Shown here piece after piece: positions 37,297-45,110 of a DNA stretch of 64,000 nucleotides (position 1 is the stretch's first letter; the number at the start of each line of letters is the position of its first letter). Origin of the DNA: Escherichia phage PE37; the sequence record NC_054929.1. One strand, 5' to 3'. Below the pieces are notes generated by a model. The model was not told the DNA's origin. It saw only the letters and a program-made list of their open reading frames with translations, and did not search any database. Position numbers and translations under genes: made by a program.

Positions 37297-37493
37297 TGAA
37301 ATTCTTTTTAGGTCAAACCGTTGAATTAAAGGGAGTTGGTATACCTGGATTAATTTCTAAGGTTCTACCTCCATTTAAATGGAGTGGTGTTCAAATAAAA
37401 GAGGCTTATATTGTTTCCTGGGTAGATGGAAATGAAGACCTTCGTATGGGTGATGAATTATCTCCTATTTACGGATTAAAGGAATTAGTATGA
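37296..37493 (+). CDS. hypothetical protein (65 aa)
   Basis: coupled ORF. Confidence 0.45.
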   Translation: MKFFLGQTVELKGVGIPGLISKVLPPFKWSGVQIKEAYIVSWVDGNEDLRMGDELSPIYGLKELV

Positions 37494-37696
37494 ATATAAT
37501 TAATAAGATTTTTGGAATTCAGTACATTAAGGTCACATATAAAGTAACAGATAAAAATCCATATACTGATGAACATGAAGAACCACAAGTTAAGTCTATT
37601 ATATTAGAAAAGGACCCTAACTGGCCAGTTGAATTTCGTCTTCCTTGCTATGGTCATTGGGCTGATGTTGAAATTATAAGCATTGAAAATGCCTGA
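37490..37696 (+). CDS. hypothetical protein (68 aa)
   Basis: ATGA-coupled ORF. Confidence 0.45.
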   Translation: MNIINKIFGIQYIKVTYKVTDKNPYTDEHEEPQVKSIILEKDPNWPVEFRLPCYGHWADVEIISIENA

Positions 37697-38147
37697 GTTA
37701 GAGATTAGAAGCAATTTTAGATGGCCATCATGTGCATTAAGTAATTTCGCCCAATGGCCTTTCGTTATGGATGGCATTCAATTTGGAGGTCTCGAAGGAT
37801 TCCTCCAAGGGTGTAAGGTGAAAAATGTTGAACAACAACGTCGTATATTTGGGTTATCCGGGCTTGCCGCCCAACAAGCTGGAAGGTCTTATGCTAGAGC
37901 TCAGGACCATGGGACCCTCTTTTGGCTCGGAGTTCCATTTTCAAGATACTCTCCAGCGTGGAAAGAATTATACACAAATGCATATTTTGAAGCAGCGATT
38001 CAAAACAAGGGCTTTCGTGATGCATTACAAGCCTCGAAAGGAAAAGTTTTGAAGCACAGCATGGCTAGTGGTCTAACAAAAGATGATACAATACTAACCG
38101 AAGCTGAATTTATTGATGTGTTAAACCTATTAAGAGACTCTCTATGA
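37689..38147 (+). CDS. NADAR / YbiA-family (DUF1768) protein, putative ADP-ribose N-glycosidase
   Basis: ALSNFAQWPFVMDG...GLEGFLQGCK aligns with the SNFAAWP...DG...E..FQ..K core of E. coli YbiA as recalled; C-terminal LKH matches YbiA LVEH; start at ATG 37689 (track TTG at 37683). Confidence 0.65.
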   Translation: MPELEIRSNFRWPSCALSNFAQWPFVMDGIQFGGLEGFLQGCKVKNVEQQRRIFGLSGLAAQQAGRSYARAQDHGTLFWLGVPFSRYSPAWKELYTNAYFEAAIQNKGFRDALQASKGKVLKHSMASGLTKDDTILTEAEFIDVLNLLRDSL

Positions 38148-38986
38148 AGCCTACTATTTTAACTGATATTGATGGAGTATGTTTAAGCTGGCAATCAGGC
38201 CTTCCTTATTTTGCTCAGAAATATAATCTTCCGTTGGAACATATTTTAAAAATGATCCAAGATGAAAAATTTATTTCTCCTGGTAAACTTTTTAATTGTG
38301 ATGAAGAACTTGGCGTTAAGCTAATTGAAAAATACAATCGTTCAGATTTTATTCGTTACTTGTCTCCATATAAAGATGCCCTGTGTGTAATTAACAAATT
38401 AAAAGAAGATTATAATTTTGTAGCTGTTACAGCGCTGGGTGATTCTATTGACGCTCTGTTGAATCGTCAATTTAATTTGAATGCTCTTTTTCCTGGTGCC
38501 TTCTCAGAAGTAATGATGTGTGGTCATGATTCTTCAAAAGAAGAGTTGTTCAAAAAGGCAAAAGAGAAATATAACGTAATTTGTTATATTGACGATCTCG
38601 CTCACCACTGCGATCATGCGAGTGAAATATTAAATGTTCCAGTTTATTGGATGGCTCGAGGAGAGCGTGACAGTATTCCAAAAACTGCACAGCGAGTTTA
38701 TACATGGAATGATGTAGAGAATAAGCTTTTTCCATCGAAGGAAAATAAAGAAAGTTTTGATAGTGAAAAAGCTATAAAAGATGTAATTGAAAAGATGATT
38801 AAAAACGATTCTTTTCGTTGGAATACTACCTGGAGAACTCCTGGATTAAATCCATACCATCCATATTATACACATCCATATCATGTGCATCCATTTCATA
38901 CATGGAACTATATTAAACCTGGTGGCATAGAGTATTTGTATAATAGACCTACTAGTGGTGATAATATTTTCCAAGGAGCATTCTAA
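38144..38986 (+). CDS. HAD-superfamily phosphatase (5'(3')-deoxyribonucleotidase-like) with His/Tyr/Pro-rich C-terminal tail
   Basis: motif I LTDIDGV, motif IV YIDDLAHH; C-terminal PYHPYYTHPYHVHPFHTW. Confidence 0.6.
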   Translation: MKPTILTDIDGVCLSWQSGLPYFAQKYNLPLEHILKMIQDEKFISPGKLFNCDEELGVKLIEKYNRSDFIRYLSPYKDALCVINKLKEDYNFVAVTALGDSIDALLNRQFNLNALFPGAFSEVMMCGHDSSKEELFKKAKEKYNVICYIDDLAHHCDHASEILNVPVYWMARGERDSIPKTAQRVYTWNDVENKLFPSKENKESFDSEKAIKDVIEKMIKNDSFRWNTTWRTPGLNPYHPYYTHPYHVHPFHTWNYIKPGGIEYLYNRPTSGDNIFQGAF

Positions 38987-40932: not shown

Positions 40933-40955
40933 GAATAAACACTAGAGAGGATATG

Positions 40956-43049
40956 ATGGAACTCATTACAGAATTATTTGACGAAGATACTACTCTTCCG
41001 ATTACAAACTTAAATCCAAAGAAGAAAATACCACAAATTTTTTCAGTTCACGTTGATGATGCAATTGAACAACCAGGCTTTCGTTTATGTACCTATACAT
41101 CTGGAGGTGATACTAATCGCGATTTAAAGATGGGAGATAAAATGATGCATATTGTTCCTTTTACATTAACTGCTAAAGGTTCAATTGCTAAATTAAAAGG
41201 TCTGGGTCCAAGCCCGATTAATTATATCAATTCAGTTTTTACTGTTGCAATGCAAACAATGCGTCAATATAAAATTGATGCCTGTATGCTTCGTATTCTT
41301 AAGTCTAAAACTGCTGGCCAAGCTCGACAAATTCAAGTTATTGCTGATAGACTTATCCGTAGTCGTTCAGGTGGTAGATACGTCCTTCTTAAGGAACTCT
41401 GGGATTACGATAAAAAGTATGCATATATTCTTATACATCGCAAAAATGTATCACTAGAAGACATTCCAGGAGTTCCGGAAATTAGTACCGAGCTCTTTAC
41501 TAAAGTTGAATCGAAGGTCGGTGATGTTTATATCAATAAAGATACTGGAGCTCAAGTAACTAAAAATGAGGCAATTGCAGCATCTATTGCGCAAGAAAAT
41601 GATAAACGTTCTGACCAAGCTGTAATCGTTAAAGTTAAAATTTCACGTAGAGCAATTGCGCAAAGTCAATCATTGGAATCTTCTAGATTTGAAAGTGAAT
41701 TATTCCAGAAGTATGAATCTACCGCAGCTAATTTCAATAAACCTGCTACCGCTCCTTTAATTCCCGAAGCAGAAGAAATGAAGCTTGGAATTAATTCGTT
41801 AGCTTCTAAAACTAAGGCAGCAAAAATTATTGCTGAAGGAACTGCGAATGAACTTCACTATGACTATAAATTCTTTTCAAAAAGTGAGGTTGATGAAGTT
41901 TCAGAAAAAATTAAAGATGTAATTTTTAACGCAATCAAAAATGAACCAACTACTTCAATAAAATGTTTAGAGAAATACGCAGCAGCTGTTAATAAATTCT
42001 TTGAAGAATATAAAGATAATTGGCTTGATAAACATAATAAAACTCGTAAAGGGCAACCAGATGAAGTCTGGGGAGAAATAACTAAAAATGCATGGAATAC
42101 AGCAAAAACTAAATTCCTCAAACGAATGATTTATAGCTTTTCTGGAATTGGTGCTGGTCCAATGATTGATATTACTATTGCCCGTGATGGTTCTAAATAT
42201 ACTCCATCACAAAAGCGAGGTATTAGAGAATATTGTGGTTCAGGATATACAGACATTAATAATCTTCTTTTAGGTCGTTACAATCCAGAACGATATGATG
42301 TAATGAGTGAAAAAGAAATTGAATCTGCTATAAATAACTTAGATTCAGCTTTTGAAAATGGTGACCGTATACCAGAAGGCATTACAGTTTATCGTGCTCA
42401 AAGTATGACTGCTCCTATATATGAAGCGTTAGTTAAAAATAAAGTGTTCTATTTCAGAAATTTTGTATCTACTTCTTTAACTCCTATTATTTTTGGACGT
42501 TTTGGAATCACACATGCTGGTATTGGTCTTTTAGAACCAGAAGCTCGCAATGAATTAACAGTTGATAAAAATGAAGAAGGAATAACTATTAATCCAAACG
42601 AAATAAGAGCGTATAAAGAAAATCCTGAATACGTTAAAGTTCAAATAGGATGGGCAATTGATGGAGCTCATAAAGTTAATGTTGTATATCCAGGAAGTCT
42701 TGGAATAGCAACAGAAGCTGAAGTTATTCTACCGCGTGGATTGATGGTCAAAGTTAATAAAATAACTGATGCTTCTAATAATGACGGAACAACATCTAAT
42801 AATACAAAACTCATTCAAGCTGAAGTTATGACCACGGAAGAGCTCACCGAATCGGTAATCTATGATGGAGACCATTTAATGGAAACTGGTGAATTGGTTG
42901 CAATGACAGGTGATACTGAAATAGAAGACAGAGTTGACTTTGCATCATTTGTTTCATCAAATGTTAAACAGAAAGTCGAATCATCTCTTGGAATTATTGC
43001 GTCTTGCATAGATATTACAAACATGCCTTACAAGTTCGTTCAAGGATAA
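40956..43049 (+). CDS. alt: ADP-ribosyltransferase Alt
   Basis: 697 aa from second ATG; N-terminus MELITELFDEDTTLPITNL matches T4 Alt; C-terminal ART signature YRAQS / FVSTSL / EAE. Confidence 0.9.
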   Translation: MELITELFDEDTTLPITNLNPKKKIPQIFSVHVDDAIEQPGFRLCTYTSGGDTNRDLKMGDKMMHIVPFTLTAKGSIAKLKGLGPSPINYINSVFTVAMQTMRQYKIDACMLRILKSKTAGQARQIQVIADRLIRSRSGGRYVLLKELWDYDKKYAYILIHRKNVSLEDIPGVPEISTELFTKVESKVGDVYINKDTGAQVTKNEAIAASIAQENDKRSDQAVIVKVKISRRAIAQSQSLESSRFESELFQKYESTAANFNKPATAPLIPEAEEMKLGINSLASKTKAAKIIAEGTANELHYDYKFFSKSEVDEVSEKIKDVIFNAIKNEPTTSIKCLEKYAAAVNKFFEEYKDNWLDKHNKTRKGQPDEVWGEITKNAWNTAKTKFLKRMIYSFSGIGAGPMIDITIARDGSKYTPSQKRGIREYCGSGYTDINNLLLGRYNPERYDVMSEKEIESAINNLDSAFENGDRIPEGITVYRAQSMTAPIYEALVKNKVFYFRNFVSTSLTPIIFGRFGITHAGIGLLEPEARNELTVDKNEEGITINPNEIRAYKENPEYVKVQIGWAIDGAHKVNVVYPGSLGIATEAEVILPRGLMVKVNKITDASNNDGTTSNNTKLIQAEVMTTEELTESVIYDGDHLMETGELVAMTGDTEIEDRVDFASFVSSNVKQKVESSLGIIASCIDITNMPYKFVQG

Positions 43050-43052
43050 ATC

Positions 43053-45110
43053 ATGGAACTTATTACAGAATTATTTGACGGCGCTTCGGCGCCGGTTGTT
43101 AACTTAAATCCTAAGCATAAAATACCACAAATTTTTGCTATTCAAGCCGGCGAAGAAAGCGTGCTTCCTGGATTTAGATTTTGTACATACACCTCTGGTG
43201 GTGATACGAATAAAAACGTTAAGCCAGGCGATAAAATGATGCATATCGTAATGATAGGTGTTAATGAGAAATTATCGTTAGTTAAGCTTAAAAACTTGGG
43301 TGGAAATCCAATTGGTGTCATTAATGCGGTTTTTGATACTGCTCTTCAAACAATGAAACAGTATAAAATTGATGCATGTTTATTCCGCGTACTAAAAAGT
43401 AAAACAAATGGCGCAGCTCGTCAAATGCAAGTTATTGCTGACCGTTTAGTACGTACTAAAGGAGCAGGTCGATATGTTCTTTTAAAGGAAATCTGGGATT
43501 ATGATAAAAAGTATGCATATATTATGGTTTACCGTAAAAATGCCAATTTAGAAGACATTCCAGGTGTACCTCCTATTTCAACTGAGTTATTCACAAAAGT
43601 TGAATCAAAGGTTGGTGATGTTTATGTAGACGTTAAAACAGGTAATGCTGTTCCTAAAGCTGTTGCTGTTGCCGCTTCTATTGCTTTAGAAAATGATAAG
43701 CGCACGGATCAAGCTGTTATTCAGAAAACTAAAATTAGTCGTCGATTAGCAGCACAAGCTCAATATTCTACTGTCGATGCTTCACTTCAGGGTGATAGCT
43801 TCGCCGCTAAGAAATATCAAGAGTTTGAATCTAAAGTTCCGGTATATAAAGCAGAAGGACCAATGAACTCTGGCGTTATTCAGATTGGTTCAAACTTCAG
43901 CAAAGGAGCTATCGGTGGTATGAGAAGTGCTTCTCGTTTTAAATCTAATGATTATGAACTAGAAAGTTTCCGAAATCATATTGCATTAGCCCATGCACGT
44001 TTACGCGATCCATCTATCAAGCTGCAGAGCGATACATCATATCAAGGTTCCCAGGAATATTTAAAGAATAAAGACTTCTTTAATTACAAAACTGATAAAA
44101 TTTTAAGCGATCTTGCTGATATTAATATTTCTAATAGTTTTGATGTTATTAAGAAAATTATCAATGATTTAGTTAAAGGTTCTAAAGCTACACCAGATGA
44201 AAAGACAGCTATTATTCAATTTGTAATGAATGGAATTTATAAATTAATTGATGAATCCGCTGCTCAGGCGTATGAATATGCAAGCACTGAAGTAACTCCA
44301 AAAGGATTAACTCAGGCTGAGTCCGATGTAATTGAAGATTATTGTGCAGATTCATATGTTGAAATGAACTCGTTCCTCTTGGGTAAACCAGATTCTACCC
44401 GTGAAGAATACATGGAACGAGCTATTAAACACATCGAGACAATGGATTCTGCCTTTGCCAAAGGATCAGTTCTTCCTCCAGGAACTACGCTTTATCGTGG
44501 ACAAGAAGTTACCTTTAAAACTTTACGTCATAATATTGAAAATAAAATGTTCTACTTCAAGAACTTCGTATCCACATCGCTTAAACCAAATATCTTCGGT
44601 GAGCATGGTAAAAACTATATGGCTCTAGATGATTCCGGTGCAGTATTTTCTGGTGAAGGAGAAGGTTCCGTTGATGCTGAAGATTTAATGCATATGGGTA
44701 GTCATTCTGCTTATGCGAATGAAGATGCTGAAACTAGCGTGGGTATGGTAATAAAAGGAGCTGAGCGAATTAAAGTTATCGTTCCAGGTCATTTATCAGG
44801 ATTTCCATCAGAAGCTGAAGTTATTCTACCGCGTGGAATTTTGCTGAAGATTAATAAAGTGAGTACTTACTTTATGAAAGAAACTGCTTATAACAAGTAT
44901 CTAATCGAAGGTACAATCGTTCCTCCTTCTGAACAATTAGAAGAATCAGTATATGATGGCGACCATCTAATGGAAACTGGTGAAGTTCGTCCAATGGCTG
45001 GATTTAATCAATTCCTTGTAGAAGAATCAAAAGAAGAGGAAAACGAAGTTTCTCAAATCTTAGCTTCTTTGGTTAACATCAACGGAATGTCTAAAAAGTT
45101 CAAGATGTAG
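43053..45110 (+). CDS. second Alt-like ADP-ribosyltransferase paralog
   Basis: 685 aa; N-terminal ~235 aa about two-thirds identical to Alt by eye; divergent middle; retains R (LYRGQ), STS (FVSTSL) and ExE (EAE) motifs; AAGGA SD 6 nt upstream. Confidence 0.8.
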   Translation: MELITELFDGASAPVVNLNPKHKIPQIFAIQAGEESVLPGFRFCTYTSGGDTNKNVKPGDKMMHIVMIGVNEKLSLVKLKNLGGNPIGVINAVFDTALQTMKQYKIDACLFRVLKSKTNGAARQMQVIADRLVRTKGAGRYVLLKEIWDYDKKYAYIMVYRKNANLEDIPGVPPISTELFTKVESKVGDVYVDVKTGNAVPKAVAVAASIALENDKRTDQAVIQKTKISRRLAAQAQYSTVDASLQGDSFAAKKYQEFESKVPVYKAEGPMNSGVIQIGSNFSKGAIGGMRSASRFKSNDYELESFRNHIALAHARLRDPSIKLQSDTSYQGSQEYLKNKDFFNYKTDKILSDLADINISNSFDVIKKIINDLVKGSKATPDEKTAIIQFVMNGIYKLIDESAAQAYEYASTEVTPKGLTQAESDVIEDYCADSYVEMNSFLLGKPDSTREEYMERAIKHIETMDSAFAKGSVLPPGTTLYRGQEVTFKTLRHNIENKMFYFKNFVSTSLKPNIFGEHGKNYMALDDSGAVFSGEGEGSVDAEDLMHMGSHSAYANEDAETSVGMVIKGAERIKVIVPGHLSGFPSEAEVILPRGILLKINKVSTYFMKETAYNKYLIEGTIVPPSEQLEESVYDGDHLMETGEVRPMAGFNQFLVEESKEEENEVSQILASLVNINGMSKKFKM

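Follow-up and report, generated by a model that had tools for sequence, protein, structure and literature searches.

A full-length adfN allele beside a ligase-linked HAD phosphatase gene in the early region of a T4-like phage

Resistance of T-even phages to the bacterial DarTG1 system was mapped to gene 30.3, since renamed adfN (Johannesman et al., Nat Commun 2025, PMC11825919). Deletion and complementation in T4 showed that adfN is necessary and sufficient during infection (PMC11825919), and the gene is dispensable in the absence of DarTG1. Purified T4 gp30.3 strips ADP-ribose from guanine, but not from thymine, in DNA in vitro (Toxins 2024, PMC11125620), and does so on its own (PMC11825919, PMC11125620). 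Substitutions E36A and K43A impair T4 AdfN in vivo, E36A also serving as the inactive control in vitro, and phage RB69 is sensitive to DarTG1 because a frameshift deletes the last 15 residues of its AdfN, a truncation that lowers activity; RB69 is rescued by AdfN supplied in trans (PMC11825919). In a T4 transposon screen, adfN insertions were lost under DarTG1 (HIDEN-SEQ preprint 2025, bioRxiv 10.1101/2025.11.20.689424), gene 30.3 reaching a log2 fold change of -7.25 (padj 0) in the DarTG1 sheet of the supplementary table; this screen used one DarTG1 system, plasmid-borne, in LB. Uninfected cells are not protected from DarT1 by T4 gp30.3 (PMC11125620), and since AdfN is not an antitoxin outside T-even infection an additional phage factor has been proposed (PMC11825919, PMC11125620).

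Phage gp30.3 proteins are NADAR enzymes of the His type, the same position being occupied by Glu in YbiA-type and by Asp in DarT1-linked members (PMC11543638, PMC11125620). DarG1, the NADAR antitoxin associated with DarT1 (E. coli C7; Geobacter lovleyi, PDB 8bat), shares with AdfN the fold and the hydrolysis of guanine-N-ADP-ribose on DNA, but carries an N-terminal extension, has Asp at the position of AdfN His123 and acts as an antitoxin in uninfected cells, which T4 AdfN does not. The housekeeping NADAR and N-glycosidase YbiA of E. coli (2b3w) is the best structural neighbor of AdfN and also hydrolyzes guanine-ADPr in vitro (PMC11125620), although the two are only 18% identical and the last strand bears Glu in YbiA and His in AdfN. 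Gene ybiA belongs to a LexA-controlled operon, is linked to swarming and has no known role in phage counter-defence, and YbiA-type NADARs of bacteria and plants are involved in the detoxification of riboflavin intermediates (PMC11125620).

The DNA analyzed here, hereafter the window, is a stretch of 64,000 nucleotides of Escherichia phage PE37 (NC_054929.1), a T4-like myovirus (Tequatrovirus). The 2 kb around adfN and 30.2 were 97–98% identical to many Tequatrovirus genomes, Escherichia phage AndreasVesalius being the closest (98.1%). The order of ORFs is that of the T4 map (cd, 31, rIII, 30.9 to 30.1, 30 encoding DNA ligase, alt.1, alt), on the opposite strand, and the locus is the 30.3–30.2 segment within a T4-like early gene run (Table 1). 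Both ORFs singled out in the preliminary description, which had been made from the letters alone, are real, and the motifs and the ATGA overlap quoted there are present. All gene junctions from 30.6 to alt.1 overlap by 1–8 nt, four of the seven through ATGA. Scans for promoters and terminators between 35.2 and 41.2 kb gave counts not above those of shuffled sequence. The two downstream genes that had been described as Alt-type ADP-ribosyltransferases were found as tandem full-length paralogues 3' of the ligase gene (40953–43049 and 43053–45110, + strand), sharing 70% and 41% identity with T4 Alt; in T4, by contrast, alt is single, and alt.-1 and alt.-2 are relics of an old duplication. The vicinity of alt to the NADAR and HAD genes reflects the conserved gene order of the T4 early region.

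Table 1. Coordinates of the features of the 30.4–30.2 segment in the window
Feature	Position	Strand	Basis or conservation
Gene 30.4 of T4, 68 aa, 5' of adfN; 8-nt overlap with the adfN start (ATGCCTGA)	37490..37696	+	phrog_2042
adfN (T4 gene 30.3), 152-aa phage His-type NADAR, DNA ADP-ribosylglycohydrolase by its T4 orthologue	37689..38147	+	PF08010, T4 identity, AF2 fold
E36 codon GAA, catalytic glutamate of AdfN	37794..37796	+	invariant in 39 homologues
K43 codon AAG, catalytic lysine of AdfN	37815..37817	+	>=90% conserved in 39 homologues
H123 codon CAC, last-strand His marking the phage gp30.3 NADAR subfamily	38055..38057	+	invariant in 39 homologues
C-terminal AdfN helix: final 15 residues, coded up to 38144, and stop; absent from the inactive RB69 allele	38103..38147	+	T4/RB69 alignment
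ATGA stop/start overlap of adfN and 30.2	38144..38147	+	sequence; 1-8 nt overlaps of like kind from 30.6 to alt.1
Gene 30.2 of T4, 280-aa HAD-superfamily phosphatase; core ~aa 1-200, C1 helical cap ~aa 15-85, disordered P/Y/H-rich C-terminal tail	38144..38986	+	
HAD motif I, D8-I-D10-G-V (nucleophile Asp, general acid/base Asp)	38165..38179	+	D8, D10, G11 invariant in 39 homologues
HAD motif II, T96	38429..38431	+	>=90% conserved, remainder Ser
HAD motif III, K132	38537..38539	+	invariant in 39 homologues
HAD motif IV, D150-D151 (GAC GAT; Mg2+ ligands)	38591..38596	+	>=90% conserved

The window AdfN was identical to T4 gp30.3 at 149 of 152 positions (98%), with equal length, the same syntenic place between 30.4 and 30.2 and the same residues E36, K43 and H123. 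Three substitutions, S2P, R74H and I125M, set it apart from the T4 protein, as do its origin in another Tequatrovirus and the two full-length alt paralogues of that phage; RB69 has P2 and M125 too, and at position 125 Met is also the consensus of the family. The assignment of this ORF to the NADARs in the preliminary description stood, by a somewhat different route from the one foreseen. The Pfam family PF08010 (Phage_30_3) matched the window protein with E=5e-70 (234 bits, cutoff 36) and also matched 39 of 39 aligned homologues, whereas PF08719 (NADAR), the family that had been expected, gave no match at E<=1 on the window protein and appeared additionally in 4 of the 39 (best 1.5e-7). Because PF08719 was silent on the window protein, the link to NADAR was made via PF08010, the members of the family, its profile and its fold. 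A search of the PDB with the AdfN family profile returned E. coli YbiA as the sole match (E=9e-4), with an alignment spanning the LSNF...EGFLQ..K segment, and the catalytic Glu and Lys of the E-G-F-x-Q-x-x-K segment are present in the window protein; single-sequence PDB searches produced only noise. The AlphaFold2 model of AdfN (pLDDT 93.6, pTM 0.89) had as its top three Foldseek matches YbiA 2b3w (E=6.5e-5, TM 0.66), PnNADAR 8bau from Phytophthora and GlNADAR 8bat, the Geobacter protein of DarG1 type, which are the only NADAR structures in the PDB, all other matches having a probability of 0.03 or less. None of the PADLOC defence-system models matched AdfN, and NCBIfam and PADLOC were uninformative for both proteins.

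From the 98% identity, the full length and the retention of E36, K43 and H123 we infer that the window AdfN is an active guanine-ADP-ribose glycohydrolase like that of T4. The RB69 gene is annotated at 137 aa, 15 aa short, and the alignment with T4 and RB69 showed the window allele to be full length. As shown for T4, host DarT1 would use NAD+ to ADP-ribosylate guanines in the phage DNA and thereby block replication, and AdfN would cleave the N-glycosidic bond between guanine and ribose, which frees ADP-ribose, regenerates the base and lets replication proceed. The preliminary description had proposed precisely such a phage-encoded eraser of guanine ADP-ribosylation as a counter-defence, and this reading of the raw sequence, a phage enzyme removing ADP-ribose from DNA against a toxin-antitoxin defence, matched a real mechanism, carried out by the T4 orthologue. 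The novelty claimed for it did not survive: T4 gp30.3 has been published as AdfN in that role (PMC11825919, PMC11125620). The mechanism itself was published in 2023–2025, and the finding adds one further natural full-length adfN allele.

The product of 30.2, which had been described as a HAD phosphatase, is indeed a phosphatase of HAD fold, having the full set of four catalytic motifs together with a C1 cap. It was identical to the T4 protein (278 aa) at 265 of 280 positions, the differences lying mostly in the C-terminal tail. In an alignment of 39 homologues, reaching down to 34% identity, the cap region was strongly conserved, and the predicted structure showed a Rossmannoid HAD core with a helical cap; DxD/T/K/DD motifs, core and cap are all common to gp30.2 and the C1-cap phosphatases of HAD subfamily I. 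No curated profile of Pfam or NCBIfam matched the window gp30.2 above threshold, PHROG 420 being its only profile match. Weak matches to PF00702 were found in 8 of the 39 relatives, exceeding the cutoff (27.9 against 26.4 bits) solely in the distant relative P0300. A 5'-nucleotidase fold had been expected, and sequence signals pointing that way recurred but stayed weak: the 5'(3')-deoxyribonucleotidases cdN and mdN (PF06941; 2jao, 2i7d, 1mh9, 3bwv) were among the top Foldseek matches and cdN was the best PDB profile match (E=0.057), but the family stayed below the gathering score of NT5C (PF06941), matched by 6 of the 39 members with a best E of 1.2e-4 and by P0300 with 18.3 bits where the cutoff is 24.8. 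The DxD motif together with the C1 cap points to a Mg2+-dependent phosphatase acting most plausibly on a small phosphomonoester, with a nucleotide as the best guess. By the mechanism of the family, D8 would form the phospho-aspartyl intermediate and D10 act as acid/base, while T96 and K132 would hold the phosphate and D150/D151 the Mg2+. Among 1.8 billion cluster representatives, a profile search retrieved 1,435 relatives of gp30.2, which thus belongs to a large and widespread ligase-linked HAD family with about 1,400 phage records found here. The literature search found no paper containing 'gp30.2' and nothing relevant on a HAD phosphatase in phage counter-defence.

The tail of gp30.2 (38816–38986, + strand, aa ~225–280) is predicted to be disordered and is rich in P, Y, H, T and N (NPYHPYYTHPYHVHPFHTWNY); compared with T4 it has His at Asn or Gln positions of the T4 protein and an insertion of 2 aa. 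About half of the homologues are tailless, and many of the tailed ones carry near the C-terminus the motif G-I-E-Y-L-x-x-[QR]-P-T, which may be a docking motif. Among extended members, a metagenomic protein of 591 aa (P0253) has its gp30.2-family HAD domain at aa 386–586; the domain N-terminal to it is a match to phrog_24943 'DNA polymerase' with a GDLD motif, which hints at a nucleotidyltransferase of Pol-beta type. It was the sole Rosetta-stone fusion of the HAD family, all remaining extensions being without a recognizable domain, and as a single case it could be an artefact of gene calling.

The preliminary description had gone on to couple the two enzymes, proposing that the phosphatase processes a product of the NADAR. 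To place this in a wider context, 80 viral loci fetched via gp30.2 homologues and 80 fetched via NADAR were surveyed over flanks of 6 kb. DNA ligase was present in the flank of 75 of the 80 gp30.2 loci, nearly always directly downstream, and missing from the flank of four, whereas a gp30.3-type NADAR lay within 6 kb in 36 and was absent from that distance in 44. Conversely, about 23 of the 80 NADAR loci had a HAD gene within 6 kb. At least seven of the sampled contigs contained both genes tens of kb apart (~55–60 kb in complete genomes), including Aeromonas phage 44RR2.8t and a Klebsiella phage record, in which NADAR is ~60 kb away from 30.2. In 44RR2.8t the NADAR gene (L163:2974-3423, record 65473-65922) sits in the tRNA gene cluster beside vs.6, ~60 kb away from both 30.2 and the ligase gene, and in one Klebsiella phage record the feature at the corresponding position bears the label 'anti-CBASS protein acb1', which is probably wrong. 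In tblastn searches the two genes were found in 1,438 and 1,509 phage records; both occur almost universally in the same groups of phages, and their counts per host genus are closely alike. Co-occurrence in genomes is therefore indistinguishable from shared ancestry and uninformative on function. A distant group showed the inverted order PhoH-ligase-HAD, and on distant T4-like contigs (L156:3750-6588 and L152:2539-8662) the gp30.2-type HAD gene was found amid genes for PhoH, DNA ligase, a PD-(D/E)XK nuclease and gp59. Since the L156 ligase gene lies directly upstream instead of downstream, the adjacency of HAD and ligase survives rearrangement, and this adjacency, held even when the order is inverted, constitutes a small residual lead.

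These data are best explained by 30.3 being adfN, the anti-DarTG1 eraser, and 30.2 encoding a separate HAD phosphatase that is not a required partner of AdfN, a reading to which we assign a probability of about 0.88. The opposite view, in which NADAR and HAD act together as a counter-defence module of two enzymes, with the phosphatase processing ribose-phosphate or supplying the T-even factor of AdfN, draws on the adjacency and overlap of the genes, on their adjacency at 40–50% identity in RB43/RB16-like and Aeh1-like phages as well as in Tequatrovirus and Mosigvirus, and on the finding that AdfN works fully only in T-even infection (PMC11825919, PMC11125620). It is highly improbable. Overlaps run through the genes from 30.6 to alt.1, so the ATGA junction is generic to the gene run and not specific to this pair; AdfN suffices in vitro and restores guanine without any phosphate chemistry; and 44 of the 80 HAD loci lack a nearby NADAR, with at least seven contigs separating the two genes widely. 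In the HIDEN-SEQ screen, moreover, insertions at 71 sites of T4 30.2 were neutral under DarTG1 (mean counts 271.5 vs 249.8, log2FC -0.12, p=0.61, padj 1), against -7.25 for 30.3, and genes 30.1, nudE, pseT, alt, modA, modB and adfA (61.2) were neutral too (bioRxiv 10.1101/2025.11.20.689424). Gene 30.2 had been weighed as the missing co-factor of AdfN because RB69, which AdfN in trans rescues, keeps an intact 30.2; the neutral insertions in the DarTG1 sheet led to its rejection. Functional coupling of NADAR and HAD is thus not supported, and for DarTG1 it is contradicted; a dispensable or redundant clean-up of released ADP-ribose by gp30.2 may occur, though nothing supports it. The adjacency of 30.2 and adfN reflects inherited T4 gene order, 30.2 being tied to ligase and not to NADAR.

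Whether that tie is functional is a matter on which we remain doubtful. Service of gp30.2 in ligase and nick metabolism, by clearing PPi or AMP as product or inhibitor or by healing 3'-phosphate ends, would suit the ligase genes found beside nearly all of its homologues and is rather unlikely: T4-type genomes hold gene order for unrelated genes as well, four of the 80 HAD loci have no ligase in the flank, T4 already possesses PseT, and 30.2 is non-essential (on K-12) while ligase is essential. Going by the cap types of HAD enzymes, a C1 cap such as that of gp30.2 also speaks against a DNA end as substrate. As to AdfN, a comparative-genomics survey suggested that phage NADARs act preferentially on soluble ADPr derivatives and pointed to co-expression of NADAR and ART in T4-like phages (PMC9503650), and the failure of AdfN to act as an antitoxin in uninfected cells (PMC11125620, PMC11825919) fits the idea that soluble ADP-ribose immune-signalling derivatives, or adducts made by Alt, ModA and ModB, are its main natural substrates rather than DarT1 lesions. 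We regard this as distinctly improbable in the face of the genetics and biochemistry that directly identify DarT1-modified DNA as a substrate; adfN can be spared when DarTG1 is absent, alt, modA and modB tolerate insertions when it is present, and Alt is annotated as targeting proteins, namely RNA polymerase.

With AdfN as the eraser and gp30.2 apart from it, the proposed additional T-even factor has few candidates. Besides adfN, gene 30.4 was the sole significant gene in the HIDEN-SEQ DarTG1 data (log2FC -1.79, padj 0.014), and goes unmentioned in the main text of the preprint (bioRxiv 10.1101/2025.11.20.689424). The same data rule out as a helper every non-essential, non-redundant T4 gene except 30.4, so that 30.4, an essential gene or redundancy remain, the genetics arguing against 30.2. 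Among the loci sampled by tblastn, homologues of 30.4 occurred only beside adfN, in loci of Tequatrovirus and Mosigvirus type. No Shine-Dalgarno sequence was seen before the adfN ATG, and this, together with the 8-nt overlap with 30.4, offers a simple explanation, namely that insertions in 30.4 lower the translation of adfN; the depletion of 30.4 is probably a polar or translational-coupling effect. That gp30.4 is instead a T-even helper stabilizing or localizing AdfN, with gp30.2 as a ligase-linked nucleotide phosphatase, appears improbable.

Two further observations concern the adfN gene. An internal ORF in the +1 frame (37825–38052, + strand, 75 codons) corresponds to T4 30.3', annotated as 'internal translation in a different reading frame'. 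Of 15 homologous genes, reaching down to 84% protein identity, 13 are free of stops in this frame; internal stops occur in RB69 and in one Mosigvirus-type locus (L011), and the ATG of the frame is replaced in eight of the homologous genes. Many shortened adfN products other than that of RB69 were also found in public data, with lengths of 126, 109, 107, 91 and 89 aa and several of them from complete phage genomes; given their number, loss-of-function alleles of adfN may be common in nature.
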